Assembly: GCA_049519355.1 (NCBI GenBank)
Contig: JBEKQV010000001.1
Coordinates: forward strand, 220,491-284,490
Length of the DNA stretch: 64,000 nt
Direction of reading: 5' to 3'
DNA from: Candidatus Microgenomates bacterium
GTDB taxonomy: Bacteria > Patescibacteriota > Microgenomatia > UBA8517
The position numbers and the translations under genes are program-made. Within the stretch, counting starts at the first letter, position 1. Each line of letters starts with the position of its first letter. Positions 2,610 through 63,972 of this stretch are shown in pieces. The notes under the pieces were generated by a model. That model was not told where the DNA came from and ran no database searches. It worked only from the letters and a program-made list of their open reading frames with translations.

Positions 2610-4334
2610 CTATTGTGCCTGGGTGCCAGTGGTTGGAGTAATTGGTTCCTGCTCCTTCGGGGGTATAGGGGGAAGCATCCTCTTAACAATCAACTTCTTC
2701 GCAGCATTTAAAAAATAGCTTGCCTCATCAATCCTAAGAAGAAGCGATAAAAGGGTATAAACAATTGCTCCAACAAGGAATGTCATTCCGGTCAAAATTA
2801 TTACGTTTCCGGTATAGCGGGTATCAAGCATAAATCTCTGAAACGGAAAGGTTGAAGTGACATCGACTCCATTTAAGAAAGATAATCTCTTTACCCAAAC
2901 GGATTTATCAAAGACCTTAAGAATAAAATACATTGCACCGCCGGAAACGACGGTAGCAATTAGAATCTTAAGAATATGAATCAGGAATTTGGAATTAATC
3001 AGATCCCCAACCTTTTTGTTTATTAAAATCAATAAGGTTACCGCCTCAACAATTGTGCTGGCCGCAAAAGAAGCCGCCAGGGCCCAGACATCAAAGTGGA
3101 ATCCTTTTACCAGTGTAAAATCCCCAACCACCAGAATAAAAAGCCCGACAAACGAAACTATTACCGGAGTCTTTGTGTCCCTGAGGGCAAAAAAAGCCCT
3201 GGCAAGAACCGACATTAATGTTTGAAATACTATAGAGACTGCAAAAACCGAAAGAACGGTTCCTGTTTCAATTGTTGATTCCCAGTCAAAGATTTTTGTT
3301 CCATAAACCAACCGGACCGCAGGAATTCTGAGAGCAATCAGAGCCGCCGAAAGCGGCAGGGTAAAAAACATTGCCTGATAAACCGCAACCAAAAGAATTT
3401 TCCTGTATTCTTTCCAGTTTCCCTCAACATGCGAAAGCATTGGCAGAACCGCCTTAGCTAAAGATGTTCCAAAAAGCGTTACGGGAAGAAGTTGAAGAGA
3501 GTTGGCAAAAGTGTAGTAAGTGTAGGACGCTTGAGAAATAATTGATGAAAGGAAAAGCTCCGTACTTTGACCAATCTGGTCAAAGGCAAGATCAATTACC
3601 CGCGGAAGTGCCAATTTCCCTATACTTTTTACTCCCTCGTCCGGTTTTATGTCTGTCGTAAACTTAAAGCCAAGTTTTCGGGAAAGAGGATACTGAATCA
3701 GAAAATGGGCAAACGCCCCAATTACAACTCCAACAGCCGGCGCGGTTAACCCCAAGTAAGGCGTCAGGACCACCGTACCGAAAATTATTCCCAGGTTATA
3801 GAAAATCGGCGCAAGTGCCGGAACGAGAAACCTTCTGAGAGATTCCAAAACACCCGTTAAAACATAACTGACAACAAAAAAACCTTGAGCCGCAAAAAGG
3901 ATCCTAGCAAGAAACGCAATTTCAGCGGTTCCGGCAGGTCCGTAACCCGGGGCAATAACCGAATAAATTTTAACGGCACCGAATCCGAATATGGCGGCGG
4001 CAAAAAGGAATATCGCAAGGCCTATAGAAACGACTTTACCGGCCAATAGCCAGGCTTTACCTTCACCTTCGCGGAGAGTCTTAGTAAAAACCGGAATAAA
4101 AGCGGATGAAAAAGTTCCAAAAACCAAAATCTGAAATATCGCATCGGGGAGCCTAAATGCCGCAAAAAAAAGTGAAAGTGAATCGGGCGTAAAATAGCCT
4201 GCCAGAACACGATTACTTATCAAACCTAAAACCATCGACACTCCGATCATCAGCATAATGAGGCTGGCGGCGGACAGAACCGAGTTTTGCTGAGAGTTAA
4301 TAATCTTTTTTCCCCGTGCGATTAGATCTTCCAT
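2610..4334 (-). CDS. murJ: Lipid II flippase MurJ (MviN family); the ORF extends to 4379 but the start is more likely the MEDLIARGKK Met
   Basis: A polytopic protein of about 14 TM helices with the MviN/MurJ length and hydrophobicity pattern. The longer ORF would overlap the divergent rpsT start. Confidence 0.75.
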   Translation of the reverse strand: MEDLIARGKKIINSQQNSVLSAASLIMLMIGVSMVLGLISNRVLAGYFTPDSLSLFFAAFRLPDAIFQILVFGTFSSAFIPVFTKTLREGEGKAWLLAGKVVSIGLAIFLFAAAIFGFGAVKIYSVIAPGYGPAGTAEIAFLARILFAAQGFFVVSYVLTGVLESLRRFLVPALAPIFYNLGIIFGTVVLTPYLGLTAPAVGVVIGAFAHFLIQYPLSRKLGFKFTTDIKPDEGVKSIGKLALPRVIDLAFDQIGQSTELFLSSIISQASYTYYTFANSLQLLPVTLFGTSLAKAVLPMLSHVEGNWKEYRKILLVAVYQAMFFTLPLSAALIALRIPAVRLVYGTKIFDWESTIETGTVLSVFAVSIVFQTLMSVLARAFFALRDTKTPVIVSFVGLFILVVGDFTLVKGFHFDVWALAASFAASTIVEAVTLLILINKKVGDLINSKFLIHILKILIATVVSGGAMYFILKVFDKSVWVKRLSFLNGVDVTSTFPFQRFMLDTRYTGNVIILTGMTFLVGAIVYTLLSLLLRIDEASYFLNAAKKLIVKRMLPPIPPKEQEPITPTTGTQAQ

Positions 4335-4363
4335 TTTAGCTTTGTTTCGATTATACTCACTAC

Positions 4364-4627
4364 ATGCCTGTAACGACAACAGCCAAAAGAGCGTTGAGGA
4401 GTTCCAAAAATAAAGAGTTTGTGAACAAGCTTATCTTAAAAAAGCTTGAGGTTGCAGTGAGAATTGCAAAAAGGAGTAAAGGAACCGAAAAAATTTTAGC
4501 TGCAGTTTCGATGGCTGATCGGGCGGCAAAGAAAAAGGTAATCCACAAAAATAAAGCCGCAAGAATTAAATCGCAACTGGCTAAACTCTTACCCAAGATT
4601 TCAAAAAAAGCCACAAAAAAGAATTAG
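4364..4627 (+). CDS. rpsT: 30S ribosomal protein S20
   Basis: 87 aa and very basic. The motif VIHKNKAARIKSQLAKL matches the conserved S20 motif IHKNKAARHKSRL. Confidence 0.85.
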   Translation: MPVTTTAKRALRSSKNKEFVNKLILKKLEVAVRIAKRSKGTEKILAAVSMADRAAKKKVIHKNKAARIKSQLAKLLPKISKKATKKN

Positions 4628-4684
4628 CTTCTTTCACGCTCTGACTTATGCTATATTGATTTAACTTAAGGTTACTGTGCCGTC

Positions 4685-5218
4685 ATGCCCAAAAATAACG
4701 CCATAAATTTATTGCCCGGAGAGGAATTTGAAGTCTCAACTTTAGGCCGCATATTGCACTGGGCCATGGGTACTTTTCGTATTATCGTTATTGTTACCGA
4801 GATGATTGTTATGGGAGCGTTTCTGTCACGTTTTTGGTTAGACGCGCAGAACTCCGATCTTAATGACTCGATTAACATTAAGGTTGCACAAATTTCGGCA
4901 CAAAGTTCAATTGAAAGTCAATTCAGGGGGCTACAAACAAAGTTAGCGATATTCACTCAAATTGCCCAAAACCCAACACCTTCTCAAAAAGTTGCAAATA
5001 TTACGTCAAAAATTCCCCCTGACGTAACCCTTTCAGGTCTTACAATTTCAGATGCCTCAATTGCAATTAACGGAGTTTCAAATTCGGAAGCCGGTATCTC
5101 ACAGTTCATTTCAAATTTGGAGGCGGACAAAACTTTTAAGACAGTAAACTTGGGCCAACTGAATTCGTCTGAAATTAATCCGTCACAAACTAATTTTTCT
5201 ATAAACATTACATACTAA
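4685..5218 (+). CDS. Type IV pilus assembly protein PilN-like
   Basis: N-terminal INLLP motif followed by a single TM helix, as in the PilN (fimbrial assembly) family. Confidence 0.5.
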   Translation: MPKNNAINLLPGEEFEVSTLGRILHWAMGTFRIIVIVTEMIVMGAFLSRFWLDAQNSDLNDSINIKVAQISAQSSIESQFRGLQTKLAIFTQIAQNPTPSQKVANITSKIPPDVTLSGLTISDASIAINGVSNSEAGISQFISNLEADKTFKTVNLGQLNSSEINPSQTNFSINITY

Positions 5219-5222
5219 AACT

Positions 5223-5876
5223 ATGGCACTTGGTTGGAGAGAATCATATTACAGATACAGAGGGTTTTTCCTGAATATCGCCGCCCTATATAAACAAAAG
5301 GCCGATCTACGGGCTTTTTTGGAAATCGTCCTTTCGATAACAACCGTTATTGTTTTTTTGCTGTTCGCCTTAAAACCCACCGCTCTGACTATAATTAATC
5401 TTCTTCAGCAAATAAATGAAAAGAAACAAACACTCGTAGGATTAACCCAAAAGGTAAATGATCTGCAAACAGTAAACGGTATTCTTGACCAAGACCAAAA
5501 TTTAATTCCGTCTATTGATGCGGCGGTTCCAAACGTACCCAACCCCGATATCCTATCGGAGCAAGCGGAGGGGCTCGCATCAAAAGATGCTGTAGAAATA
5601 CTCGGAATTTCCGTCAATCAAGTAACTCTTCTTGGTGCCAACTCCACAAAGAAAATAACCGGGGTAACACCTCTTCCGCAAGGAGCATACGAAATGCCAT
5701 TTTCGCTTAGTATCGAAGGTCCCTACACAAACTTAATTGCTTTCGTTAACGACTTCGAAAATCTGGGGCTGGCATCAAGAATCGACAGTCTCACAATTAG
5801 TTCTTCCGTAACCGATAAAGGAAGAGTTATAGTTGCAGTAATTTCCGGCAGGATACCGTTTTTAGGTAGTCAATAA
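5223..5876 (+). CDS. PilO-like pilus assembly / membrane-anchored coiled-coil protein
   Basis: N-terminal TM helix, then a coiled-coil segment and a periplasmic domain. It sits immediately downstream of the PilN-like gene. Confidence 0.4.
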   Translation: MALGWRESYYRYRGFFLNIAALYKQKADLRAFLEIVLSITTVIVFLLFALKPTALTIINLLQQINEKKQTLVGLTQKVNDLQTVNGILDQDQNLIPSIDAAVPNVPNPDILSEQAEGLASKDAVEILGISVNQVTLLGANSTKKITGVTPLPQGAYEMPFSLSIEGPYTNLIAFVNDFENLGLASRIDSLTISSSVTDKGRVIVAVISGRIPFLGSQ

Positions 5877-5877
5877 T

Positions 5878-6216
5878 ATGGAGAAAGAAAAGTTACCAAA
5901 TCCAATCTTGATTTTAATACTGACACTTATCACCGCCTTTATCTGGGTTTCCTTAAATATCTACCGTGCCATATCTACCAAGCCGACAGCTAGTGTTCCG
6001 CAGGCAATTTCTCAACCTTTGACACCGTTGCTGGATCCAAACGCTATCAAAAAAATTCAATCATCGATTCTTTTAAATAGTTCGCAAATCCCGCAAAATA
6101 TTATCACCCCCGCAGGAACTAATGCGCCGGCCGTTTTACCAACACTTTTACCGGTTGCTACTCCAATTGCCTCGCCAAGTTCATTACCAACCGCCAGCCC
6201 AAGCGCAACACCATGA
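5878..6216 (+). CDS. Small membrane-anchored Pro/Ala-rich protein (hypothetical)
   Basis: An N-terminal TM helix (ILILILTLITAFIWVSL) followed by a low-complexity P/A/S-rich tail. It has the same strand and tight spacing as its neighbours. Confidence 0.3.
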   Translation: MEKEKLPNPILILILTLITAFIWVSLNIYRAISTKPTASVPQAISQPLTPLLDPNAIKKIQSSILLNSSQIPQNIITPAGTNAPAVLPTLLPVATPIASPSSLPTASPSATP

Positions 6217-6240
6217 GGAGACAGTCCGAAACTATAAAAC

Positions 6241-7593
6241 ATGATTAAAAGAAGTAAAATTCCAACAATCTTAGGTATAGTAGTACTTCTTGTAGGAACA
6301 TTTGCGGGAGTATTTTTCCTGGGAAGAAATCAAGTTTTTAGGATCGGCGCCAATCCAACTTCAACTCCAAAAGATGTCAGGGTAAGCAATCTCTCGGATA
6401 TTTCAGCCACCGTTTCCTGGACAACGGGAGGCCAGACATCTGACTTTCTAAACTGGGGAACCACACAAAATGTAGGCAGTATTGAAAATGAAAGCCAAAC
6501 CAATGAAAAGTTCTTCAACCACAGTATTACATTAAGCGGGTTAAAAGCTTCAACCACATATTTTTATAAAATTAACTCTGAAGGAACAACTTTCGATAAT
6601 AACGGCGTTCCCTGGCAATTTACCACAGGGTCGACACTTGCAGCAAATCAAAACTCTATGCCTATTTCAGGCTCTGTCATCACGGCATCAAGCCAACCCT
6701 CAGCCAGAGCAATTGTTTACGTAACGGTAAACGGATACCTTCTTTCGACTTTGACATCTGATTCGGGTAGTTTTGTCATACAACTGGCACAAGTGCGCAC
6801 TTCGGACCTAACTTCCTATGCCGTAGTTGATCCCGCCACTACCCTTTTGGAAATATCCGTAGAAGCCGAAGACGGCGAAACTTCTTCAGCTCAAATATTT
6901 CCCCAATCCGCCAATCCAATTCCCACCCTTATCCTGGGGCAAACCCAAGATTACAGAAGTCTACAGCCGCAACAATCCGGCCAAAATCCCAGCGCCAATT
7001 TAAATTTGCCGGCCACGGCAACTCAAGAATCAAAAATCAACATTGGCACAACCTCGGCAACCCCCGCTCCAACAAGTGTAATTCTGGAAAGCTTAACCGA
7101 GGGAGAAACAGTAACAAGCAACCAACCCCAATTCTTTGGTAAGGGTCCGGGAGGGGAAACGATTACGGTCACCGTTCACTCACAGGATGTAGTTTCGGGA
7201 ACCGTCAAAATTCCTACCAATGGCTCCTGGAGTTGGAGTCCTCCTTCAACCCTTTCCGCGGGATCTCATTCAATTACAATTTCCTGGATAGACACCTCCG
7301 GAATCACAAGAACATTAACCCGGGATTTTATTGTTCAAGCGGGTGAGGCGCCAGCTTTTGTTGCCTCCCCCTCGGGCACTCCAATTTCCACATCAACCAT
7401 CTCTCCAAGTCCTGTCCCGACTCTTGTGCCTGTTTCTACGGCAACTCCAACCGCAATTCCTACTGAAATATCCTCTCCAACCGCGGAACCTGTACCAGTT
7501 ACTGGTGACTTGACTCCCACGTTCCTACTATCTATCATGGGATTAGCAATTCTTGCTTTCAGCGTTTTTGTGTGGAGATTTTCAGAAAAATAA
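6241..7593 (+). CDS. Cell-surface protein with an N-terminal signal anchor, a fibronectin type III-like domain, a Pro/Thr-rich stalk and a C-terminal TM anchor
   Basis: The FN3-like segment reads VRVSNLSDISATVSWTTGG...STTYFYKI. A long PT-rich linker follows. The C-terminus reads VPVTGD, then a hydrophobic helix, then WRFSEK, which looks like a sorting signal. Confidence 0.5.
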   Translation: MIKRSKIPTILGIVVLLVGTFAGVFFLGRNQVFRIGANPTSTPKDVRVSNLSDISATVSWTTGGQTSDFLNWGTTQNVGSIENESQTNEKFFNHSITLSGLKASTTYFYKINSEGTTFDNNGVPWQFTTGSTLAANQNSMPISGSVITASSQPSARAIVYVTVNGYLLSTLTSDSGSFVIQLAQVRTSDLTSYAVVDPATTLLEISVEAEDGETSSAQIFPQSANPIPTLILGQTQDYRSLQPQQSGQNPSANLNLPATATQESKINIGTTSATPAPTSVILESLTEGETVTSNQPQFFGKGPGGETITVTVHSQDVVSGTVKIPTNGSWSWSPPSTLSAGSHSITISWIDTSGITRTLTRDFIVQAGEAPAFVASPSGTPISTSTISPSPVPTLVPVSTATPTAIPTEISSPTAEPVPVTGDLTPTFLLSIMGLAILAFSVFVWRFSEK

Positions 7594-7599
7594 TTTTAC

Positions 7600-9117
7600 A
7601 TGCCCAATCAAAACGACCCTACCCAAAACCCAACCCCAGTAAATCCTGTTCCTCCGGTTATCTCTCCCCAGGCAGACCTCCCGCCGCTTCCTCCCGCATT
7701 TCAAAATCTTAATAATCCAACACCTCCTGTCGCGGCCTCGGAAAAAGAAAATACATCACCTCCTTCCGACAACGGTTCGGCAGCCCCTCCCGATATTTCT
7801 TCCGTTACCTCAAAACCCAAGAAAAAATTCGGGGGAGGAAGAATAATTGCAACGATATTGGGATTATTCCTCTTGGTTGGGGGAGTTGGCGCGGGAATAG
7901 TTTTAACTCAGCAACCCCAGCTTCTTCAACAAAAAGCATCCACTATTTGTCCTGTCACGGCTCCAGATCTTTGTAAGTGTTACAATTGTGACGGCAGTGT
8001 CAGAGGAAGTGGTTGCCTTCCTGCTTCTGAATCCTGCGATGCATACTGTGGCGGAAGTAGTACTCCAACAAACTGCAACAGTCAAACCTGTACACCAAAT
8101 ACCAGTACAAAATCGTGTACAGAATCAAATGGTTGCGCAGGAACTGAAACCTGTAACTCATCAGGAACTGGCTATGGAAGCTGTGTACAAAATGATTCCA
8201 GTTGTGGAAAATCCTCAGGAGGGGCTTCTTGTAGCGGAGGAATCGCCGATGGAAAAATCGGCTGCCTGGATAGTGCCACGGGGGTTGTCTGCAATAACGG
8301 TGCGTTCAGTCAAACTAAACAGTATTGTCCTCAAGGAACAAAGTGTGTAAATGGTTCCAGTCCGGGCAGTTTTTGTTCAGCTTGTTCACCCGCTACTAGT
8401 TGTTGTTTCGCTAATTCGACCGTTCCGTCCTCACCAGTCTGTACGGTAAGTCATAAGTATCTATGCTCGAACGGAAGCTGTATCGAAAACGACACCAACG
8501 GAACTTTCACATCAAATACTTGTGGAGGAACCTGTAGTGGAACTCCGAACCCGAACGTAGCAGACTGCGGAAGTGCGGCAGTCGGCGGGGCCTGCACAAC
8601 TGGAAGCGATTGCCATTGCCAGGGTGGGGACGCTTGCACAAGTCTTTTGTGTCAGCCGGATCAGCATCAATCCTGTCTTAGCCAAAGTAGAGCCTGGTGT
8701 GTAAACATGACAGGAAAGGGCATGACCTGTTGTGCTGCAGGATATGTCTGCGCCGTGGGTGTTAACGGATGTGTCTCTGGACCTTCGGCTCCGCCATCCA
8801 GCCCGCCGAATAATCCCACTGCTCCTTCCTGTGTGGCTGTCACGGCATACACCCCAACATGGACCGCTCTGACTTCTGCCCAACTTTCGGCACTAACCAC
8901 TGGGGCACAGATCAATTTCTGTGTTAGCGGTTCAAACGGTACGTTCGATCAGGCAGACTTCAAGATCAACTCAACAGTTGAGGCGGCAACTACTACCAAG
9001 AGGCCGAGTTCTAGTGATTTCTGCCAGTTATACACAATTCAGGCATCAGACACAACTATATCGGTTTCGGCGAAGATTCACGATACTACAAAGGGCTGGG
9101 TAGGAGAAAGTTTTTAA
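7600..9117 (+). CDS. Cysteine-rich extracellular protein with a Pro-rich cytoplasmic N-terminus and a single TM anchor
   Basis: The N-terminus is PTPVNPVPPVISP..., then one TM helix (IIATILGLFLLVGGVGAGIVL). The remaining roughly 380 aa are dominated by C/G/S/T with many CxxC and CxxxC spacings. Confidence 0.5.
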   Translation: MPNQNDPTQNPTPVNPVPPVISPQADLPPLPPAFQNLNNPTPPVAASEKENTSPPSDNGSAAPPDISSVTSKPKKKFGGGRIIATILGLFLLVGGVGAGIVLTQQPQLLQQKASTICPVTAPDLCKCYNCDGSVRGSGCLPASESCDAYCGGSSTPTNCNSQTCTPNTSTKSCTESNGCAGTETCNSSGTGYGSCVQNDSSCGKSSGGASCSGGIADGKIGCLDSATGVVCNNGAFSQTKQYCPQGTKCVNGSSPGSFCSACSPATSCCFANSTVPSSPVCTVSHKYLCSNGSCIENDTNGTFTSNTCGGTCSGTPNPNVADCGSAAVGGACTTGSDCHCQGGDACTSLLCQPDQHQSCLSQSRAWCVNMTGKGMTCCAAGYVCAVGVNGCVSGPSAPPSSPPNNPTAPSCVAVTAYTPTWTALTSAQLSALTTGAQINFCVSGSNGTFDQADFKINSTVEAATTTKRPSSSDFCQLYTIQASDTTISVSAKIHDTTKGWVGESF

Positions 9118-54919: not shown

Positions 54920-56287
54920 GTGCAATACATGGACAACACTCAGGCGTGGAAAGATTCTCTGGAGATTATTAAGGTTTCTGTTTCTCCGGCTATTTTTTCA
55001 ACCTGGTTTTCCCAAACCCATCTTGCCTCGGTTACCGATGCGGGGGAGAGGGTGGTCGCCGAAGTGGGTTGCCCGACCTCCTTTGCCAAGAACACTATTG
55101 AGACAAGGTATTTCGGTCTTGTACAGGATTCTCTATCCAAAGTTCTGGGGAAAAACTGTGACTTAACTTTTATAGTTAAAGGAAACCCTGCAAAACTTGT
55201 GTCCAATCAAGACTCCGCAGCTCCTCTTTTCTCACCGGAAAAAGACGGTGACATGCTTGAGGTCTTACAAAGAGCTCGGCTTAGACCAAGTTTTACATTT
55301 GAAAACTTTGCAGTTTCTTCCTCGAACCAAATGGCCCATGCGGCAGCCGAAGCTGTATCGCAAAGTTTGGGTGACGCTTATAATCCTTTATTTATTTGGG
55401 GTGGGGTGGGGGTCGGAAAAACCCACCTTATGGTTTCTGTCGGTAACTACATTCTCAGAAACAATTCATCAAAGAAGGTCTTTTTTTGTACGGGTGAGGA
55501 TTTTACAAACGACATCGTCGAGGGAATAAGAAACAAAACCACGCAAGCGTTCAGGAATAAGTACAGAAAACTTGATTTGCTTCTAATCGACGATATTCAA
55601 TTTATTGCCGGCAAGGACACTGTCCAGGAAGAATTTTTCCACACATTTAATGCCGTAACCTCAGTCGGCGGACAAATAATCCTAACTTCCGATAGGCCCC
55701 CTTCAGAAATCTCAAAACTTGAGGAGAGACTCAGGAGCCGTTTTGAAGCGGGTTTAATTGTTGATGTAGCTCCGCCGGATTTTGAGCTGCGGTGTGCAAT
55801 AACTCAAATTAAAGCAAAAGAAAAAGGAATCGACCTAACTTCCGAGCAGGCCCAAATGATTGCGGCAAATTCCGAGTCGGCCAGAAAAATTGAAGGTCTT
55901 CTTACCAAACTCTTAACCGAGATCCATGTTAAAAAGGTTCCGATAACAAACGATCTTATTGAATCTTCCTTTGCAAAGAATTTGGAAAACGGGACAAGAA
56001 TCACAAAAAGCACACCCGACGAAGTTACGGAGGTTGTTTCCAAATATTACCAGGTAGGAAAAAGGCTTCTTCTGGGGGAAAGCCGAGCCCGCCCGATTGC
56101 CAGACCCCGACAAGTTCTTATGTATCTCCTTAGAACCCATCTTGGAATTCCGTTGGAAGAAGTGGGAAGGGTAGTGGGGGGGAGAGATCACACTACTGTT
56201 ATGCACGCTGTGGAAAAGATTACAGATTTGGCCATGCGCGATGTGCAAATCCGTGAGGATATTTTGAGGATAAAACAAAGCATTTGA
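54920..56287 (+). CDS. dnaA: Chromosomal replication initiator protein DnaA
   Basis: The AAA+ Walker A is NPLFIWGGVGVGKTHL and the Walker B is LLLIDDIQF. The C-terminal DnaA-box-binding HTH reads LGIPLEEVGRVVGGRDHTTVMHA. Confidence 0.9.
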   Translation: MQYMDNTQAWKDSLEIIKVSVSPAIFSTWFSQTHLASVTDAGERVVAEVGCPTSFAKNTIETRYFGLVQDSLSKVLGKNCDLTFIVKGNPAKLVSNQDSAAPLFSPEKDGDMLEVLQRARLRPSFTFENFAVSSSNQMAHAAAEAVSQSLGDAYNPLFIWGGVGVGKTHLMVSVGNYILRNNSSKKVFFCTGEDFTNDIVEGIRNKTTQAFRNKYRKLDLLLIDDIQFIAGKDTVQEEFFHTFNAVTSVGGQIILTSDRPPSEISKLEERLRSRFEAGLIVDVAPPDFELRCAITQIKAKEKGIDLTSEQAQMIAANSESARKIEGLLTKLLTEIHVKKVPITNDLIESSFAKNLENGTRITKSTPDEVTEVVSKYYQVGKRLLLGESRARPIARPRQVLMYLLRTHLGIPLEEVGRVVGGRDHTTVMHAVEKITDLAMRDVQIREDILRIKQSI

Positions 56288-56485: not shown

Positions 56486-57601
56486 ATGAAATTACAAATA
56501 CTTCAGGAGAATTTGGAAAAGGCCGTAAGCATAACATCCCGCTTTGCCAGTGTAAAAGCACAACTTCCCATTTTGGGGAACATTCTTCTTTCAACACAAA
56601 AAAGTAAAATCTACATTTCCTCAACCAATTTGGAGATTTCAGCGTCGGTTCAAGTTGGAGCAAAAATAGACGAGGAAGGAGAAATAAGTATTCCTTCAAA
56701 AGTTATTTCTGAGCTGGTCGCGAACTTGCCCAAAGAGACCATATCTCTAACAGCAGAAAAGGAACAACTGAAAATTTCCGCTTCAGGTTTTTCATCGACC
56801 ATTCTGGGAATGAACTCGTCGGATTTTCCGAAAGTGATCAACTCATTAAGTAAAGAAAAGGCAATAGTTTTTTCTCAGGAAGAGTTGTCTAAGGCTTTGG
56901 GACAGGTTGTTTTTGCCACATCGACCGACGAAACTAGGCCGATTTTGACCGGGGTTCTTTTTTTGTTTGGAAAAAATTCGATATCGCTTGTGGCAACCGA
57001 CGGTTTCAGACTTTCGCGCAAGACGTTTTTGGTTAAAGAGGTTAAAGGAAGTGAAAATAGTGTAGTTATTCCGAAGGGTGTTTTGGGTGAGCTTTTAAGA
57101 ACGGTTTCGGAAAACGGAGAGATTCTTTTCGGGTTACAGGAGAAAGAAAAACAAGTTGTATTCAGTCTTGGAGATGTTGTGTTAACCTCAAGGCTTTTGG
57201 AAGGGGAGTATCCTGATTTTGAGAAAATCATTCCTAAGTCTTCCAACATAAAAATTCTTTTAGATAAAGAGGAATTAACAAGAGCGGTTAAACTCGCCTC
57301 TATTTTTGCAAGAGAATCTGCAAACATAGTTAAATTACAAATACTAAAAGACGAAATTAAAGTTTCCGCCGAAAGTTCCTCTGCAGGAAGTCAGGAGACG
57401 AGCGTTGAGGCAAAGATAGAATCCTCACAAAAAGATTTTGAGATAGCCTTTAATTACAGATTTTTAGAAGACTTTTTGCATTCCGTTCAAGGAGAAGAAG
57501 TAAAAATGGAATTTTCTGGGGTTTCTTCTGCTGGAGTGTTTACGGACACCTCTGACAATTCTTATCTTCATTTAATAATGCCGGTAAAAGTTCAAAGCTG
57601 A
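56486..57601 (+). CDS. dnaN: DNA polymerase III beta subunit (sliding clamp)
   Basis: 371 aa. It begins MKLQILQENLEKAVSITSRF and shows a three-domain clamp pattern. It sits immediately downstream of dnaA. Confidence 0.9.
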   Translation: MKLQILQENLEKAVSITSRFASVKAQLPILGNILLSTQKSKIYISSTNLEISASVQVGAKIDEEGEISIPSKVISELVANLPKETISLTAEKEQLKISASGFSSTILGMNSSDFPKVINSLSKEKAIVFSQEELSKALGQVVFATSTDETRPILTGVLFLFGKNSISLVATDGFRLSRKTFLVKEVKGSENSVVIPKGVLGELLRTVSENGEILFGLQEKEKQVVFSLGDVVLTSRLLEGEYPDFEKIIPKSSNIKILLDKEELTRAVKLASIFARESANIVKLQILKDEIKVSAESSSAGSQETSVEAKIESSQKDFEIAFNYRFLEDFLHSVQGEEVKMEFSGVSSAGVFTDTSDNSYLHLIMPVKVQS

Positions 57602-58014
57602 TTTCCGTTTAAATCAACCACATAATATTTGACGGGTGCCGGAACGCCAATTGCTTGCAAATCGAAAACGGCACCGGCAACAATACTTTTTTCCTGGGTG
57701 GCTGTCGCAGGAACTTTTAACCGGATTCTGAAAGACTGAGTGTTAAAATCGTAGACGGCTTCGTAGTTTGTTGTTTCCAGAGGAAGTTTTGAATACCATG
57801 GGTATTGTGTATTAAGAATCGTTAGAGCCTGACCATACTTGAGATCGTCAGGTAGCGCCGTACTGGTAACCAGGGGTGGAGTTGTTTCTGGAGTGGGGGA
57901 TGGTGTTAGAGAAGCGACCGGCTTCGGTGTGGGGTGTTGCAAGACAACAACCACAAGAATGATGATACAAATTAATGAAACAGCACCGAGCACAATTATA
58001 AGTTTTTTCTTCAT
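57592..58014 (-). CDS. Small signal-anchored secreted protein (hypothetical), last gene of the T4SS-like operon (start taken at MKKKLIIV)
   Basis: An N-terminal TM/signal (LIIVLGAVSLICIIILVVVVL) then a PT-rich linker and a roughly 90-aa beta-rich domain. It overlaps the 3' end of dnaN convergently. Confidence 0.4.
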   Translation of the reverse strand: MKKKLIIVLGAVSLICIIILVVVVLQHPTPKPVASLTPSPTPETTPPLVTSTALPDDLKYGQALTILNTQYPWYSKLPLETTNYEAVYDFNTQSFRIRLKVPATATQEKSIVAGAVFDLQAIGVPAPVKYYVVDLNGNQL

Positions 58015-58033
58015 ATTTAATTCTACTCCCCCC

Positions 58034-60361
58034 TTAGGGTTTACCGAACCCAATTATACTAATTGTAAAAGATTGTCCACTTGAAGTTTTTAACGGAATT
58101 GTTTCAAAGTGCCCCGAAGAATCCACTGAATAAAACCACCCCGGTTTATAAGGGGCATTCGATTCATATGTGTGGATACCTGCTGAGGATGAATCGGCAA
58201 CGACGCCAACATGGGAGATGGCGTCTGGGCCGTCAAGAGAATTGTTAAAAAAAATAGTGTCGCCGGCGCAGACGTCGTCGTAGGTGGCGGCATTACCTGG
58301 AACCCATTTTCCAGGTTCATTTTTGAAATAGTTTACCATTGTGGGAAGAGGAAATGGAATGTTTTCGTTGATTGCCAGGTAAGATTTTGTTGCCATGTAA
58401 TTGCACCAAAACATGTCTTGGCTGCCTATTACCGCTTCTTGATTAGGCGGGTTTGGGTTTTGTGCAAAAAGAGTGGCGTTCCAGAGATCTGGGTAATCGG
58501 AAGAGTGGTTATAGTATAGGTCAAACCCCAAAGAAAGGTTGTTGGCGATAACTTTTGCGCGGTTGGCAATTTCTGGAGAACAGCCGGCGGCACCACTAAG
58601 AGTGCCCGAACTCGCAGGTACAACATAAGCCCCGGAATTGATGACAAAAAGGATTAGTGCAACGGCAATTGGTAGGGAGAGGAGGGTTATTACAACTGGT
58701 ACGACAATGGTGTCAAGGTAAACACCCGCAAGTCCGGTAAAAAACCTTCCTAAGCCGGAACTCAAACCGGAAAGAGATGACCTTAGTCCCGGAATGCCCT
58801 CATTCCAGACAGTGGCACCACCGTAACCGATCAACCCAGCTGCGGCTGCGGTTACAACAGACCCTCCTGTTAGGAAAAAAGCCGCTATGGCCGCAACGAA
58901 CGCGATAGCAATTTTCCCGTATTTGGCTAAAACATCTTTGACTTTGCCAAGAATTTTTACCCCGACGACTTCGACAAAAAAGGCCACGACCGGACCCACA
59001 ATCGGCGCGAGAGGGCCGAGGACCGGCACAAGAGCCGCCGTAATAGTTGCCGAAAGGCTAAGCCCCGTTGCCCCCTCCAAACCCTTTTCGGCTGCAACCT
59101 GGACCACTTTTTTAATGCCGAAATCTACTCCCGTTTTTTCTCCAAGCCAACCCAAAACAGGTGCTAAGCCTGAACCAACGGCAAGCTTTCCAAGAAAAGA
59201 TCCCCCAACAGCTTCCCAAGCCACAGGCGACCCAAGTCCGGCGATTGGCAAAAGGGCATGTACAGCCTCATTGCTAAAAATGCTTTTAAGAGCGCTGTCT
59301 GCCGGCAGTTTTGTGATTTCTTGACTTAAAAAGGAGCCAACCTTAGAGAGAATATGAGCACGGACATTTTCTATGCCGAAATCGGTTAAGCCTTCTAGAA
59401 AAGAACCCTGCCGGCTCATCAGAGAAGAAAAACCCCTTGCGATTAGACTAAAACCAAGCTTATTAAACCCTTCTTTGGGAGAATTCGAGAGACTGATATT
59501 GAAGTCCGGCAGAAACTCTTTTTGGAAGGAGTCGCCGAAAGCGGCGCGGGTAACGGCCTGACTTATTTCCTGTCTGGTTGCTCCCTGGTCAGACAAAACC
59601 TGAACCCAGTTTTTTAGAGTATCTGCTGTGGTTTTACTTTTGATCGCGGCGTCAACCTGTCCAGGGTTTGCAGACATTGCTGAAAACAAAGATGTTTGAA
59701 CAGAGAGAGAATCTTCCGTTTGTGCATTTTGAACAATGTCCAATGCAGCTTGTTTTGCCGCTGTGTCGGGAATGTTAGAAATTCTTGCCTTTATCTCCCC
59801 TTCGATTACCTCCGCCGTTCTGGGACCGTCAGCTTTGGCAAGTTGTCTTAACTTTTCTCCTTGCACGGTTTTAACATCGGAGGTTTTTTTGGCTTGGTAA
59901 TAAAGCCCTTCATCTTTTAAATTGGCTTCCGCCTGTTTTGCTCTTGCTGCCGCCTTCTCGTAAAGTTCCTGTTGTATTTTAATTACGCGTTTTACTTCCG
60001 CTCCCGAATTTTCAATTGTTTTTTGTTCTTCGGCTTTGCTTTTTGCCGCTTTAGTTTTGAGCTCCTCGAGGTTTTTTGGGACTGTTTGTTGACCTTCGTT
60101 GTTGACGGGTGCAATAAGTGCCCACGAATCAAGAATTTTATTGGCACTGATTACATCGTTAGTCCCAGTGATGTGTTTTATATAATCTCCGAATTCTTTT
60201 GGAGTTTTCCAACTTAATCCGAGACCTTTTACAGACCAGGGTTTCGGTTTTACGCCCTCATATCCGCTTCCAAGAATTTCTTTCGGGAAAAAATTAGTGG
60301 CGGCTTCCTGGAGATCGAAAACAATTTCTTTTGTATATCCGAAGGGTAATTCTTTTGCCAT
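58034..60361 (-). CDS. T4SS-associated fusion protein: N-terminal soluble Lys/Ala-rich domain, central VirB6/TrbL-like polytopic membrane domain, C-terminal CHAP (Cys/His amidohydrolase-peptidase) peptidoglycan hydrolase domain
   Basis: Residues 1-430 are hydrophilic. Residues 430-630 hold six to seven Gly/Ala-rich TM helices. The C-terminus reads QDMFWCNYMATKS...GDTIFF...DAISHVGVV, which places the Cys and His of a CHAP domain. The stop lies 1 nt before the VirB4 gene. Confidence 0.55.
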   Translation of the reverse strand: MAKELPFGYTKEIVFDLQEAATNFFPKEILGSGYEGVKPKPWSVKGLGLSWKTPKEFGDYIKHITGTNDVISANKILDSWALIAPVNNEGQQTVPKNLEELKTKAAKSKAEEQKTIENSGAEVKRVIKIQQELYEKAAARAKQAEANLKDEGLYYQAKKTSDVKTVQGEKLRQLAKADGPRTAEVIEGEIKARISNIPDTAAKQAALDIVQNAQTEDSLSVQTSLFSAMSANPGQVDAAIKSKTTADTLKNWVQVLSDQGATRQEISQAVTRAAFGDSFQKEFLPDFNISLSNSPKEGFNKLGFSLIARGFSSLMSRQGSFLEGLTDFGIENVRAHILSKVGSFLSQEITKLPADSALKSIFSNEAVHALLPIAGLGSPVAWEAVGGSFLGKLAVGSGLAPVLGWLGEKTGVDFGIKKVVQVAAEKGLEGATGLSLSATITAALVPVLGPLAPIVGPVVAFFVEVVGVKILGKVKDVLAKYGKIAIAFVAAIAAFFLTGGSVVTAAAAGLIGYGGATVWNEGIPGLRSSLSGLSSGLGRFFTGLAGVYLDTIVVPVVITLLSLPIAVALILFVINSGAYVVPASSGTLSGAAGCSPEIANRAKVIANNLSLGFDLYYNHSSDYPDLWNATLFAQNPNPPNQEAVIGSQDMFWCNYMATKSYLAINENIPFPLPTMVNYFKNEPGKWVPGNAATYDDVCAGDTIFFNNSLDGPDAISHVGVVADSSSAGIHTYESNAPYKPGWFYSVDSSGHFETIPLKTSSGQSFTISIIGFGKP

Positions 60362-60362
60362 A

Positions 60363-62198
60363 TTATTTTACTTGGTACGGCCCGGTGTTGATTTTTACAA
60401 CCTCCTGCGGTTTAGTTGTAATAAGTTTATTTTCTTCTTCAGACGCAACAACACGGATGGGGGCGTGGTGTGGTCCGGCAAAAAATATTCCCTCACCAAC
60501 ATTTGCTGCCAATAAGAGCTGTTTTTCTCCTTGGCTCAGATAAAAGACCTCACCAATCTTGTCTATTGCCGCGGGCGACTGTTTTAAAAGGACCTGCATG
60601 GCGCTGTTTGTAACGATGGCCTTTCCAATGTCCTGTCCGAGGAAGTCTTCGACGTCCTGCGTTATTGTAGTGAGTCCCAGGAAGTATTTACGGGCCCTCT
60701 TGACAACACTCCAAAGAAATTGCGCCGTGTCAGGGTATCTCATCATGTGCCAGGCCTCATCTACGATTAAAATTCTTTTCTTCATGTCCTTTTTGACGCG
60801 GGTCCAAATGTAATCGAGAATAATAAACATAGCAATTGGTCTAAGTGCGTCTTGCAGATCCTTGACTGAAAAGACGGTAAACGGATTTGTGATATTAATA
60901 TTTGTTTGTTTATCAAAAATTCCGATGAAACTTCCCCTGACGAACTTTTCAATTCTTGCCGAGAGATCAAGCGCTTCAGGAACTTCCATTCCGATTAAGG
61001 TTTTATAAAGATCTTCCATAAGCGGCGGTTCTTTTCCTTGGGTGTCGGGATCCATTGTTATTCCCTTGGCTCGGTAGGTCATGACAAGCGCTCTATCGAG
61101 GAGGGCCTCCTGTATTGGGGTAATTGCTCCCATAATAACTTTCATTAAAGAGTGAAGAGAAAGAATCTTCAGGCCCAACTGATTTTCGCCTTCCTCTCGG
61201 ATTTGAGAGAGATCAAACGGATTTATTTTGGCGGTCGAGTTGTAGGCGAAGGAAATATATTCACCTCCAACGGCAGTTGCAAGAGGTTGGTATTCGCTTT
61301 CGGGATCGATTACTATTACCTCAACGCCCGTCATAAGAGAGCGTAGTGCCTCAAGTTTTACGAAGTAGGATTTTCCGGCACCTGATGTTGCAAAAATTGT
61401 CATGTTTGCGTTTTCAAGGCTGAAGCGGTCGAAAATTATAAAGGATTCGTTTTGGGAATTAATACCGTATAAAACTCCTCGGTCGCTTGAAAGCTCGGTT
61501 GAAGTTAAAGGAAATGTCGTGGCAACGCTCGTTGTATCCATATTCCTTGTTATATTTAATCTGTCCATTCCGAAAGGCGCAGTCGAAAGAAACCCTGACT
61601 CCTGATCAAGAAGGGCGTGTTTACTTACAATGAGGAGAGACCCGAGTTGGGACTCTACCTGTTTGGTTATTTGGTTTAGCTCCTCGACCGAGTTGGCAGG
61701 AATTGTGATATAAAAGCTGAATTCGTAAAATCTTTCAATACCTTTTACAAGTTGTTCCTGAAGGGCCTGGGCATCTTCGAGTTTTGCTTGGGTTGTGGGG
61801 TCAACTATTTTTCCGCGTTCGATGTCGGTTGACATTTCCGCCTCCATCTCTGCAATTTTCCGTCTGAGGTCGTCAAGAACGCTTTTACCGTCAACAGGGT
61901 AAACATAAAAAGCAATATCAAGTGAAGTGTCCATGTTGATTACGGGCTCAAGCCACCCCGGGGCGACAAAACGCGGATATCCTCCTACAAAAATTGTTCG
62001 GAAATAAATGTCGTTAATTTTTATATAATCGAAATCCTCTTCTATTGATTGGGGAGCTATGGCGTCAAGCAGGTTCATTCCTTGCGAAATGGCAAGGTTG
62101 GGGTTGATTACCTTAGGCTTTACCTCATTTGGTTGAGTGGCCGGAGCGGGGTTTATTGTTTGAACCTGTTTTTGTTTTTTTGTAAATAAATTAGGCAT
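60363..62198 (-). CDS. VirB4/TraE/TrbE-family conjugal-transfer-type ATPase
   Basis: Walker A reads NMTIFATSGAGKSYFVKL and Walker B reads KRILIVDEAWHMM. CagE/TrbE/VirB4-type N-terminal motifs are also present (YFRTIFVGGYPRFVAPGWL). Confidence 0.8.
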   Translation of the reverse strand: MPNLFTKKQKQVQTINPAPATQPNEVKPKVINPNLAISQGMNLLDAIAPQSIEEDFDYIKINDIYFRTIFVGGYPRFVAPGWLEPVINMDTSLDIAFYVYPVDGKSVLDDLRRKIAEMEAEMSTDIERGKIVDPTTQAKLEDAQALQEQLVKGIERFYEFSFYITIPANSVEELNQITKQVESQLGSLLIVSKHALLDQESGFLSTAPFGMDRLNITRNMDTTSVATTFPLTSTELSSDRGVLYGINSQNESFIIFDRFSLENANMTIFATSGAGKSYFVKLEALRSLMTGVEVIVIDPESEYQPLATAVGGEYISFAYNSTAKINPFDLSQIREEGENQLGLKILSLHSLMKVIMGAITPIQEALLDRALVMTYRAKGITMDPDTQGKEPPLMEDLYKTLIGMEVPEALDLSARIEKFVRGSFIGIFDKQTNINITNPFTVFSVKDLQDALRPIAMFIILDYIWTRVKKDMKKRILIVDEAWHMMRYPDTAQFLWSVVKRARKYFLGLTTITQDVEDFLGQDIGKAIVTNSAMQVLLKQSPAAIDKIGEVFYLSQGEKQLLLAANVGEGIFFAGPHHAPIRVVASEEENKLITTKPQEVVKINTGPYQVK

Positions 62199-62886
62199 TT
62201 GTTTGTGCGTGTTCCAGTGTTACCTCGGGTTCTTTTTTGACCGCGGGATGTTCGGGATTATAGACGGACCAGTAAAGATCAATTAAGTCTGCTGTTCCAA
62301 GTTGTTTGAATTTAATTCCAAGGCGGCCCGCCTGGCGGATTAAATGGTCCCGTCTTGGGTAGAGAGTTATTTTTGCTTTTTTGATGACATACGACTTGGG
62401 GAATGGCAATGGACCTCCGCGTTTTGTAATAGCTGCGACGGATTTTCCTATTCCGAGCTCAAGAGGTGATAAATATAAAACAATGAAAAACCTTTTTCCT
62501 AAGACATTTTTCTTTTTAACGGATTCCGTAATAAAACCCCGGTAGTCTTGCATAAGCTTGGCCAAAAGGGGGTGGGTGATTTTTTTGGCCTGTTCATCCA
62601 GAAAATTTAAATATGAGCTTACATCCTTCCTTTGTGTCAGAACGACTATTTGAACGGAGAAGGTAAGTGAATTAATCATGGCGGCGTAGGCGGCAATTAC
62701 CGCTTCCTGCTCTTTTTCCGAAAGAAGACCAAAGTTAAGTGAGGTAGACTCCATTACAAGAGCTGCACCTCCGTCCCGGTAAACAACAACGTCATTTGTG
62801 ATATCGGCAATAGGAAGATGCTCCTCGGTTGTTGCGGTTAAGGGTTTGTCGGGAATATTTAAATACGGAATTTTAGGTAATGCCAT
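62191..62886 (-). CDS. Hypothetical 231-aa protein overlapping the VirB4 start by 8 nt; possibly the detached N-terminal domain of a Gram-positive-type VirB4
   Basis: VVVYRDGGAALVMESTSLNFGLLSEKEQEAVIAAYAAMINSLTFSVQIVVLTQRKD resembles, from memory, the N-terminal region of long (about 800-aa) VirB4 homologs. It has no TM segment. Confidence 0.4.
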   Translation of the reverse strand: MALPKIPYLNIPDKPLTATTEEHLPIADITNDVVVYRDGGAALVMESTSLNFGLLSEKEQEAVIAAYAAMINSLTFSVQIVVLTQRKDVSSYLNFLDEQAKKITHPLLAKLMQDYRGFITESVKKKNVLGKRFFIVLYLSPLELGIGKSVAAITKRGGPLPFPKSYVIKKAKITLYPRRDHLIRQAGRLGIKFKQLGTADLIDLYWSVYNPEHPAVKKEPEVTLEHAQTNA

Positions 62887-62889
62887 TTT

Positions 62890-63972
62890 TTAAAATTGTG
62901 CCGCCGGTTGAGCACTAAATTGATTTATCGCTTGAACGGCGTTCTCGGTTGCCATAACCCTTCTTCCTTGAACGAGAATCGGAGGAACGAGAACTCCTGT
63001 TGCGTCAAAACTTACCGGTGCAAATTGATATCCGTCTTTTTCGGTCACGATGTCATATCTTCCGCTATCAAGAGGGGTAACTGTAATGAAATGCCCAACC
63101 TTATTGCTTCGGAGGGCTCTAACCGGCCGCCCCGTCTCGTCTTTTATTTCCATTATTGCCCCCTCGACGATCTTTCTTTGTTCGTCGACCACCTGTCCGA
63201 CCACCACATTTGGAGTGGTGGGGGGATTTGGGGGAGCGGCGTCAACCGAAAACATTGCCTGTTTGGTTGAAATCATTTCTTCACCTGCAACAATTGGTGC
63301 AACCTGTTGGGCAGTCATTTGGATTGTGGGGGTTCCGGATTGGGGTTTTTCTTCGACGACAAGATGAGGAGCTCCGGGGGAGGGAATTCTAACGGGTTCC
63401 ATAACCGGGATTTGCAGGTTTTTCTCTGCCTGCTGGATGGGAATGTTTGCAACCGGAGCCGTCGGGGAGGTTTGGGATAAGGCCGGTGCACCCTTTCCTG
63501 CAAGTCCTGCGAAAATTCCGCTTAAGGTTGACAGAAAACCTTCCTCGGCGCCTTCAAGTTTGGCAAAGGAACCGGAGGGGTTTTTTGTCGTTGAAAGGTA
63601 TGTTTTAAGGGCGGCTTCCTGTTCGGGTGAAGCAGTAGTCGGAGCCGGGCCCACTTCTTCGTTTTGGAAAAACTTTGGAGGGGTGGTTGTTTTTTTCCAG
63701 AAAAATTCGGTAGGGGTATAAATTGCTTTAAAAAATGCAAAAATCCAGCGTTCAAGAGGTCTTTCTTCTAGGGGCATAAAAGCTAAGGCTACGCCAAGAA
63801 TTACGGAGATTATTGCCAGCGGCCATTTAACTATTCCGATAATAGGAGCTGCGTAGAAAATGATTCCGGCCAAAATTCCTCCGGCAAGCTGGAAGAATTG
63901 TTTAAGAGTCATATCTCCCACAAGTCGGAATTGATACGAAGAAATTTGTTGCGGAATAGGATGTTGTTCCAT
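62890..63972 (-). CDS. PrgI/VirB3-like two-TM protein extended by a Pro-rich linker and a C-terminal beta-sandwich (carboxypeptidase-regulatory-like) domain
   Basis: The N-terminus reads MEQHPIPQQISSYQFRLVGDMTLKQF and is followed by two TM helices. The C-terminus reads GQVVDEQRKIVEGAIMEIKDETGRPVRALRSNKVGHFITVTPLDSGRYDIVTEKDGYQF, a prealbumin-like pattern. Confidence 0.4.
   Translation of the reverse strand: MEQHPIPQQISSYQFRLVGDMTLKQFFQLAGGILAGIIFYAAPIIGIVKWPLAIISVILGVALAFMPLEERPLERWIFAFFKAIYTPTEFFWKKTTTPPKFFQNEEVGPAPTTASPEQEAALKTYLSTTKNPSGSFAKLEGAEEGFLSTLSGIFAGLAGKGAPALSQTSPTAPVANIPIQQAEKNLQIPVMEPVRIPSPGAPHLVVEEKPQSGTPTIQMTAQQVAPIVAGEEMISTKQAMFSVDAAPPNPPTTPNVVVGQVVDEQRKIVEGAIMEIKDETGRPVRALRSNKVGHFITVTPLDSGRYDIVTEKDGYQFAPVSFDATGVLVPPILVQGRRVMATENAVQAINQFSAQPAAQF

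Follow-up and report, generated by a model that had tools for sequence, protein, structure and literature searches.

A VirB4 ATPase encoded as a TrsD-like protein and a separate ATPase chain in a chromosomal type IV secretion-like cluster of a Candidatus Microgenomates genome

A divided VirB4 in the analysed window

The stretch of DNA analysed here (64,000 nucleotides, hereafter the window) stems from a metagenome-assembled genome (MAG) of Ca. Microgenomates, a Patescibacteria genome of the Ca. Microgenomates/Woesebacteria type, and carries a minus-strand gene cluster resembling a type IV secretion system (T4SS), in which the VirB4 ATPase appears to be divided between two adjacent open reading frames (ORFs) of 231 and 611 aa. 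Both are very probably genuine, co-transcribed genes of this chromosomal cluster, the first for a TrsD-like protein that corresponds to the N-terminal part of VirB4, the second for the ATPase. An earlier note on this DNA, made from the sequence alone, had considered a genuine two-subunit VirB4, a frameshifted pseudogene, a sequencing or assembly indel and a slippage-controlled switch; it is the first of these that gains support, from the collinearity of the pair with full-length VirB4, from the conservation of the arrangement in orthologues and from the substitution rates of both genes. The features on which the argument turns are the following:

62191-62886, minus strand: TrsD-like protein, free-standing VirB4 N-terminal module, 231 aa (profile hidden Markov model (HMM) matches, hhalign, AF2/Foldseek)
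62191-62198, minus strand: stop/start overlap ATGCCTAA, 8 nt (ORF coordinates; identical in the four other assemblies L001-L004 described below)
62175-62181, minus strand: A7 run within virB4 codons 6-8, ACA AAA AAA (sequence reading)
60363-62198, minus strand: VirB4-type T4SS ATPase, 611 aa (NCBIfam conju_CD1110, Pfam, PDB 4ag5)

The stop codon of the first ORF (TAA, 62193-62191) and the start codon of the second (ATG, 62198-62196) lie within the 8-nt overlap and in different frames, and the coordinates, overlap, frames and junction reading of the earlier note were all found in the sequence. Combined, the two ORFs amount to 842 aa, versus 834 aa in a naturally fused relative (L038, see below) and 752 positions in the CD1110 HMM, which bears out the suggestion that a total of about 840 aa is the usual size of a monoderm VirB4.

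The two proteins are collinear with full-length VirB4

The 611-aa protein matches NCBIfam NF045971 (conju_CD1110) with 372.8 bits (cut-off 325; E 3.4e-111) and the VirB4 C-terminal domain structure PDB 4ag5 with E 5.5e-45; the Pfam families P-loop_TraG, AAA_10 and DUF87 cover its residues 260-568, and a Walker A motif (TSGAGKS) is present. These matches identify it as a VirB4-type T4SS ATPase. Its alignments begin far into the profiles, at position 181 of 752 in CD1110 (to 735), 292 of 894 in VirB4_plasma (to 893) and 238 of 792 in TIGR00929: on its own, the polypeptide is without a complete N-terminal domain, with the first ~180 HMM positions missing. The 231-aa protein matches the complementary part of the same models, at positions 29-109 of CD1110 and 132-234 of VirB4_plasma (E 6.9e-7), and thus covers, when both ORFs are aligned to full-length VirB4, the stretch lying ahead of the point where the 611-aa protein begins.

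Natural fusions give the same picture. L038 (CAYIKF010000009.1, 1877-4381) encodes a single-chain TrsD-VirB4 fusion of 834 aa, in which residues 14-211 of the window's TrsD-like protein align to 4-201 and residues 37-601 of the window's VirB4 to 223-792; this chain matches CD1110 positions 26-732 in one stretch. P0147 is another natural TrsD-VirB4 fusion, of 787 aa. A third locus, L069 (LCOA01000014.1, Ca. Amesbacteria GW2011_GWA1_47_20, 3233-7987), holds a 1584-aa ORF combining PrgI/VirB3-like, TrsD-like and VirB4 parts, a triple fusion that may exist as such or may stem from an error in an early assembly. The Walker A motif of this ORF is interrupted by an intein-like insert of ~520 aa (GSGKS|IFG...VHNS|YLVKLE).

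Judged by these alignments, the 231-aa protein corresponds to the N-terminus of VirB4 and is collinear with the full-length protein, and it appears to be this upstream ORF that supplies the N-terminal part missing from the ATPase chain.

The 231-aa protein as a remote TrsD homologue

The same protein can be related to TrsD of the staphylococcal plasmid pSK41. Against the NCBIfam TrsD/TraD model NF041427 it scores 26.6 bits (E 4.6e-6, profile positions 14-142 of 201), and an hhalign comparison of its family alignment A1 with pSK41 TrsD gives 93.7% probability and E 2e-7 over 176 columns, spanning query positions 12-206 and target positions 32-218 of 227, i.e. homology over the full length. An AlphaFold2 (AF2) model of the 231-aa protein built from the diverse alignment A1 reached a mean predicted local distance difference test score (pLDDT) of 85.4 and a predicted TM-score (pTM) of 0.74; it replaced a run on a shallow alignment (42 sequences of 78-90% identity), which was unusable with a pLDDT of 42. 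When this model was compared to the PDB with Foldseek, the 13 best matches were all R388 TrwK/VirB4 chains (best E 1.4e-3, probability 1.00), and no other PDB protein exceeded a probability of 0.54. A phmmer search of the 231-aa sequence against PDB sequences found nothing. The family PF26593 ('TraC-like') is listed in precomputed annotation for the exact window protein and for homologues, and our own hmmscan of a local Pfam copy, which possibly does not contain this model, gave none. In sum, the observation in the earlier note that the upstream ORF resembles a VirB4 N-domain is borne out by HMM coordinates, fusions, Foldseek and the hhalign match to TrsD.

Homologues of the 231-aa protein number 1591, and all of the 120 best are 225-244 aa long. 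In the lineage of the window the protein has a short tail, with the sequence PAVKKEPEV.LEH conserved near the C-terminus. Many TrsD-like proteins of other lineages (P0140-P0268) carry tails of 100-500 residues rich in Q, N, P, S and T, and the long tails end in conserved peptides at the extreme C-terminus, LPP[LI][PA]EI[KTE] or PF[VI]VEEL.D.

Conservation of the two-gene arrangement

The exact 231-aa protein, together with identical junction DNA, was found in four other assemblies from different samples (L001-L004: Logan SRR35179424, ENA ERZ27249994, JGI 3300018013 and Logan SRR5824232), each called as 231 aa plus 611 aa; the closest relatives all come from Patescibacteria MAGs. Beyond these copies, a scan of one genome per species yielded 80 Microgenomatia loci (43-89% identity), 79 of which have both genes. 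In about 75 of the 79, the genes are separate, the TrsD-like ORF ending in its own stop and virB4 beginning at its own start, two loci are fused (L038 and L069), and L041, which has no canonical start in a short open stretch, was counted neither as split nor as fused. The junction itself drifts considerably: its commonest form is a 4-nt ATGA overlap (20 loci), followed by spacings of -1, +5, -8 and -14, with extremes of a 68-nt overlap and a 100-nt gap, and several loci have the trsD-like gene and virB4 in the same frame with a stop codon between them. L029 is split, its stop being followed by an ATG 6 nt on, and L065, L080 and L081 have ordinary overlapping starts. At larger distances, among the 150 best representatives of 50%-identity clusters, an ATPase part is attached in a single one (P0147); the TrsD-like domain is nearly always N-terminal, and the longer representatives that were inspected carry low-complexity tails rather than an ATPase.

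Compared with L005-L008, both genes show a nonsynonymous divergence (dN) of 0.07-0.14 and a saturated synonymous divergence (dS >2), i.e. dN/dS ≤0.04. Taken over the comparisons made, dN spans 0.07-0.17 for the two genes. On these counts and rates, the two-gene state is shown here to be the ancestral one in this lineage and to be maintained by strong purifying selection. A junction that varies so much rules out a conserved recoding signal as well as a recent disabling mutation, and the consistent presence, in orthologous loci, of two proteins that each have a start and a stop of their own refutes the options other than a two-subunit VirB4.

The junction and the A7 run

The earlier note had drawn attention to an A7 homopolymer at the junction. 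The run is present (62181-62175) but it lies 3' of the stop of the first ORF, inside the VirB4 ORF, where it falls in the T-K-K codons 6-8 and provides the two lysines of a short hydrophobic-basic motif at the N-terminus (NLFTKK in the window); it is no element of the junction. Since the A7 follows the first stop and the frame of the 611-aa ORF is closed by a TAA at 62222-62220, eight codons 5' of its own ATG, the two ORFs cannot be joined by any indel or slippage in this run; fusion would require a +1 shift within the 26 nt from 62219 to 62194, where no homopolymer is longer than AAA. A/T runs of at least 7 nt number 51 in the window (42% GC), versus ~16 expected from a mononucleotide shuffle, and this one is therefore not unusual here. 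It is the same in all five copies (window and L001-L004) and is absent or different in the close relatives L005-L012; the orthologues have K-rich VirB4 N-termini, with differing codons and run lengths.

In many of the split loci (L005-L084), VirB4 starts with LPFF.KK, NLFK.K or KKF[LI]NPMP, followed by a disordered linker of variable length and then by a conserved 'IAP..IEVDFD' segment. The fused proteins L038 and P0147 are without this hydrophobic-basic motif.

A scan for promoters and terminators around the junction returned chance-level matches only, none of them at the junction. No Shine-Dalgarno motif was found 5' of the virB4 ATG either. This is uninformative, as Shine-Dalgarno-like motifs within 16 nt of the start are all but missing from the genes of the window, and having none before virB4 is normal for this genome. 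The regions upstream of gene starts are A/T-rich instead (e.g. starts at 4685, 6241, 25307 and 62886).

A model for the divided VirB4

Very probably, the TrsD-like gene accounts for the first ~200 residues of a canonical VirB4, and the virB4 gene for the remaining N-terminal domain and the ATPase domain. The two genes would be co-transcribed, with termination-reinitiation at ATGCCTAA as the most likely mechanism of translation of the second; such translational coupling, which the geometry of the junction suggests, would lead to similar amounts of the two chains. The TrsD-like chain would then bind VirB4 non-covalently, completing its N-terminal domain, and might bridge it to the VirB3-like membrane protein of the PrgI family that is encoded directly upstream. 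We infer binding and bridging from the fusions, from the conserved adjacency of the genes and from the published R388 architecture. In the R388 structure, the VirB4 N-terminal domain links to the VirB3-like protein, which serves as the model for the bridging role. The occasional re-fusions, including one of VirB3, TrsD and VirB4, would likewise support a physical VirB3/TrsD/VirB4 assembly.

Several points weigh against this interpretation. The score of 26.6 bits is far under the curated cut-off of NF041427 (200), on which pSK41 TrsD itself reaches 227.6 bits, meaning that the homology to the plasmid TrsD is remote; by its sequence, the 231-aa protein is thus best described as a remote TrsD homologue, and not as a member of NF041427 by the NCBI threshold. 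The best Foldseek match has a query TM-score (TMq) of only ~0.47, and as the Foldseek output does not give the aligned TrwK residues, the N-terminal placement is based on the coordinates of the HMM matches and on the fusions. As for coupling, many orthologues have small gaps rather than overlaps, and the physical association of the TrsD-like chain with VirB4 is a prediction by analogy.

It is also conceivable, though rather improbable, that the split is not neutral and that the free VirB4 N-terminal module may act as an independent, exchangeable adaptor. The long disordered tails with conserved C-terminal peptides, which TrsD-like proteins of many other Patescibacteria lineages carry, would, together with the N-terminal motif of VirB4, suit a role in tethering or recruitment. 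This idea would apply mainly to the relatives, as the window protein has only a short tail.

Alternative explanations

The two ORFs sum to a full-length VirB4 and rare relatives (L038, L069, P0147) are fused, as would be expected if a single virB4 had been broken by an indel near the junction and were decaying as a frameshifted pseudogene. We nonetheless regard this as extremely unlikely: about 75 of 79 species-level genomes keep two ORFs, as do 149 of the 150 best cluster representatives, both ORFs evolve at dN/dS ≤0.04 with saturated dS, the tail PAVKKEPEV.LEH of the TrsD-like protein is itself conserved close to its C-terminus, and the TrsD homologue of Ca. Southlakia epibionticum ML1 is listed as essential (PMC12102498). 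The suggestion of a pseudogene thus fails on conservation and on selection alike. An error specific to this record, such as a sequencing or assembly indel in the A-run, might be invoked because homopolymers are error-prone on some sequencing platforms, yet the same protein and the same junction DNA recur in four assemblies from different samples, and with the A7 beyond the first stop and the virB4 frame closed at 62222-62220, no change of run length fuses the ORFs. We give this explanation practically no credence, the least of those considered here.

The position of the A7 at virB4 codons 6-8 means that a change in its length would in principle truncate VirB4, and a programmed frameshift or phase-variable switch could accordingly be imagined, by which slippage produces a fused VirB4 or a change of the run turns virB4 off. 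The geometry described above speaks against slippage into a fused product, which needs a +1 shift within 62219-62194, where homopolymers do not go beyond AAA; so do the varying frames and spacings among orthologues, including same-frame pairs separated by a stop, which leave no conserved recoding signal. A phase-variable locus would have a tract whose length varies between copies and switches the frame, whereas the A7 is the same in five assemblies, absent or different in L005-L012, and one of 51 such runs in the window. A switch of this kind, the last option of the earlier note, is therefore highly unlikely. One may finally ask whether the 231-aa protein has no relation to VirB4 and is an accessory protein that happens to precede a naturally short VirB4, given that it scores weakly on the HMMs of TrsD and VirB4 (26-27 bits, under the curated cut-offs). 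The complementary HMM coordinates, the collinear fusions, one of which matches the full-length VirB4 HMM in a single stretch, the structural matches to VirB4 only, and the hhalign match to pSK41 TrsD (E 2e-7) all argue against this possibility, which we consider very unlikely. We therefore retain the interpretation of a genuine VirB4 divided between a TrsD-like and an ATPase chain.

Genomic neighbourhood

The divided VirB4 is embedded in a compact cluster next to genes of the replication origin region:

62890-63972, minus strand: PrgI-family (VirB3-like) membrane protein, 360 aa (Pfam PF12666 PrgI)
58034-60361, minus strand: 775-aa protein with hydrophobic segments, in the position of pSK41 trsF/trsG; no family assigned
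57592-58053, minus strand: small ORF, last of the cluster; 153 aa from a TTG (140 aa as called elsewhere)
56486-57601, plus strand: dnaN
54920-56287, plus strand: dnaA

The genes of the cluster are closely packed: two of the gaps measure 3 nt and 1 nt, and elsewhere neighbouring genes overlap by 8 nt and by 20 nt. The PrgI-like gene, located 3 nt upstream of the TrsD-like gene, is the first cluster gene visible in the window, and its product matches PF12666 over residues 5-87 (E 5.3e-6, 27.3 bits, cut-off 27). At 360 aa this protein is unusually long for a PrgI/VirB3-like protein, and there is a weak resemblance of its C-terminal region to the CarboxypepD_reg-like beta-sandwich of PF13620 (E 1.7e-4, under the cut-off). 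The 775-aa ORF begins 1 nt downstream of virB4, a neighbour kept in L001-L004. Scans of its product against Pfam and NCBIfam gave no match, and no similarity to pSK41 TrsG was found; a CHAP/NlpC-like hydrolase domain at its C-terminus was considered and dropped, with no Pfam match up to E 10 and none to TrsG. The protein sits where monoderm T4SS operons carry VirB6-like or hydrolase genes. The product of the small ORF at 57592-58053 had no match in a Pfam scan. The whole minus-strand operon converges directly on dnaN and dnaA, and the same neighbourhood is seen in L001-L004. Both dnaA and dnaN are marker genes of the origin-proximal region.

Comparison with known systems

The two-gene arrangement of VirB4 is already known, and the window is a standard example of an arrangement that has been published: in these ultrasmall bacteria, as on pSK41, a separate protein normally provides the first ~200 residues of VirB4. 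Its closest known counterparts are TrsD and TrsE of the S. aureus plasmids pSK41 and pGO1 (mating-pair formation class MPF-FATA, the subclass with pGO1 as prototype), in which, as in the window, a protein of ~230 aa is encoded directly upstream of a VirB4 of 610-670 aa. In pSK41, trsC (a weak PrgI match) is followed by trsD (227 aa), trsE (672 aa), a gene for a membrane protein and one for a CHAP protein, and the order VirB3-like (TrsC/PrgI), TrsD, VirB4 and membrane protein is the same in the window. TrsE matches CD1110 positions 183-730, which places the break point at 183 versus 181 in the window, i.e. at the same point of the protein. The two systems differ in that trsD and trsE are separated by a 14-nt gap instead of an 8-nt overlap, in that TrsD and the window protein are remote (19% identity), and in their location, the window cluster being chromosomal and beside dnaN/dnaA, the pSK41 system on a plasmid. 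To judge from 'TrsD/TraD', the name of the NCBIfam family, TraD/TraE of pIP501 belong with TrsD/TrsE.

Full-length monoderm VirB4 proteins (the CD1110 family, PrgJ, TcpF and the VirB4 of mycoplasma integrative and conjugative elements (ICE)) are matched by the sum of the two window proteins, which together account for the whole VirB4 HMM, and the TrwK chains of R388 have the fold matched by the model of the 231-aa protein. Unlike the window pair, however, both the monoderm VirB4s and R388 TrwK are single polypeptides, whereas here the first ~200 residues reside on a separate chain.

For annotation, this means that the 'hypothetical protein' of 231 aa encoded ahead of virB4 in Microgenomatia should be named TrsD-like (VirB4 N-terminal module), and that the pair should neither be flagged as a frameshifted pseudogene nor merged into one gene. 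What is added here to the published picture is small: the break point shared with pSK41, the drifting junctions, the resemblance of the predicted fold to TrwK, the rare re-fusions and the finding of strong purifying selection.

Quiñonero-Coronel et al. (2025; PMC12102498) place TrsD in the pGO1 subclass of MPF-FATA and count 2,272 homologues in Patescibacteria, where it was the most abundant T4SS component; 1,664 of these homologues are neighbours of virB4. The clusters are often near dnaA and most of them are without a relaxase; no VirB3-VirB4 fusions were found in Patescibacteria in that study, in which junction geometry and fused forms are not discussed (PMC12102498). The epibiotic lifestyle of Patescibacteria reportedly depends on the T4SS concerned as an essential system, the cluster of Ca. 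S. epibionticum ML1 being essential according to Wang et al. (2023), as cited in PMC12102498, and to this biology our analysis adds only detail. With its TrsD-like, VirB4 and PrgI/VirB3-like genes beside dnaA and dnaN, the cluster of the window corresponds to the Patescibacteria cluster described there (PMC12102498), with no difference of kind.

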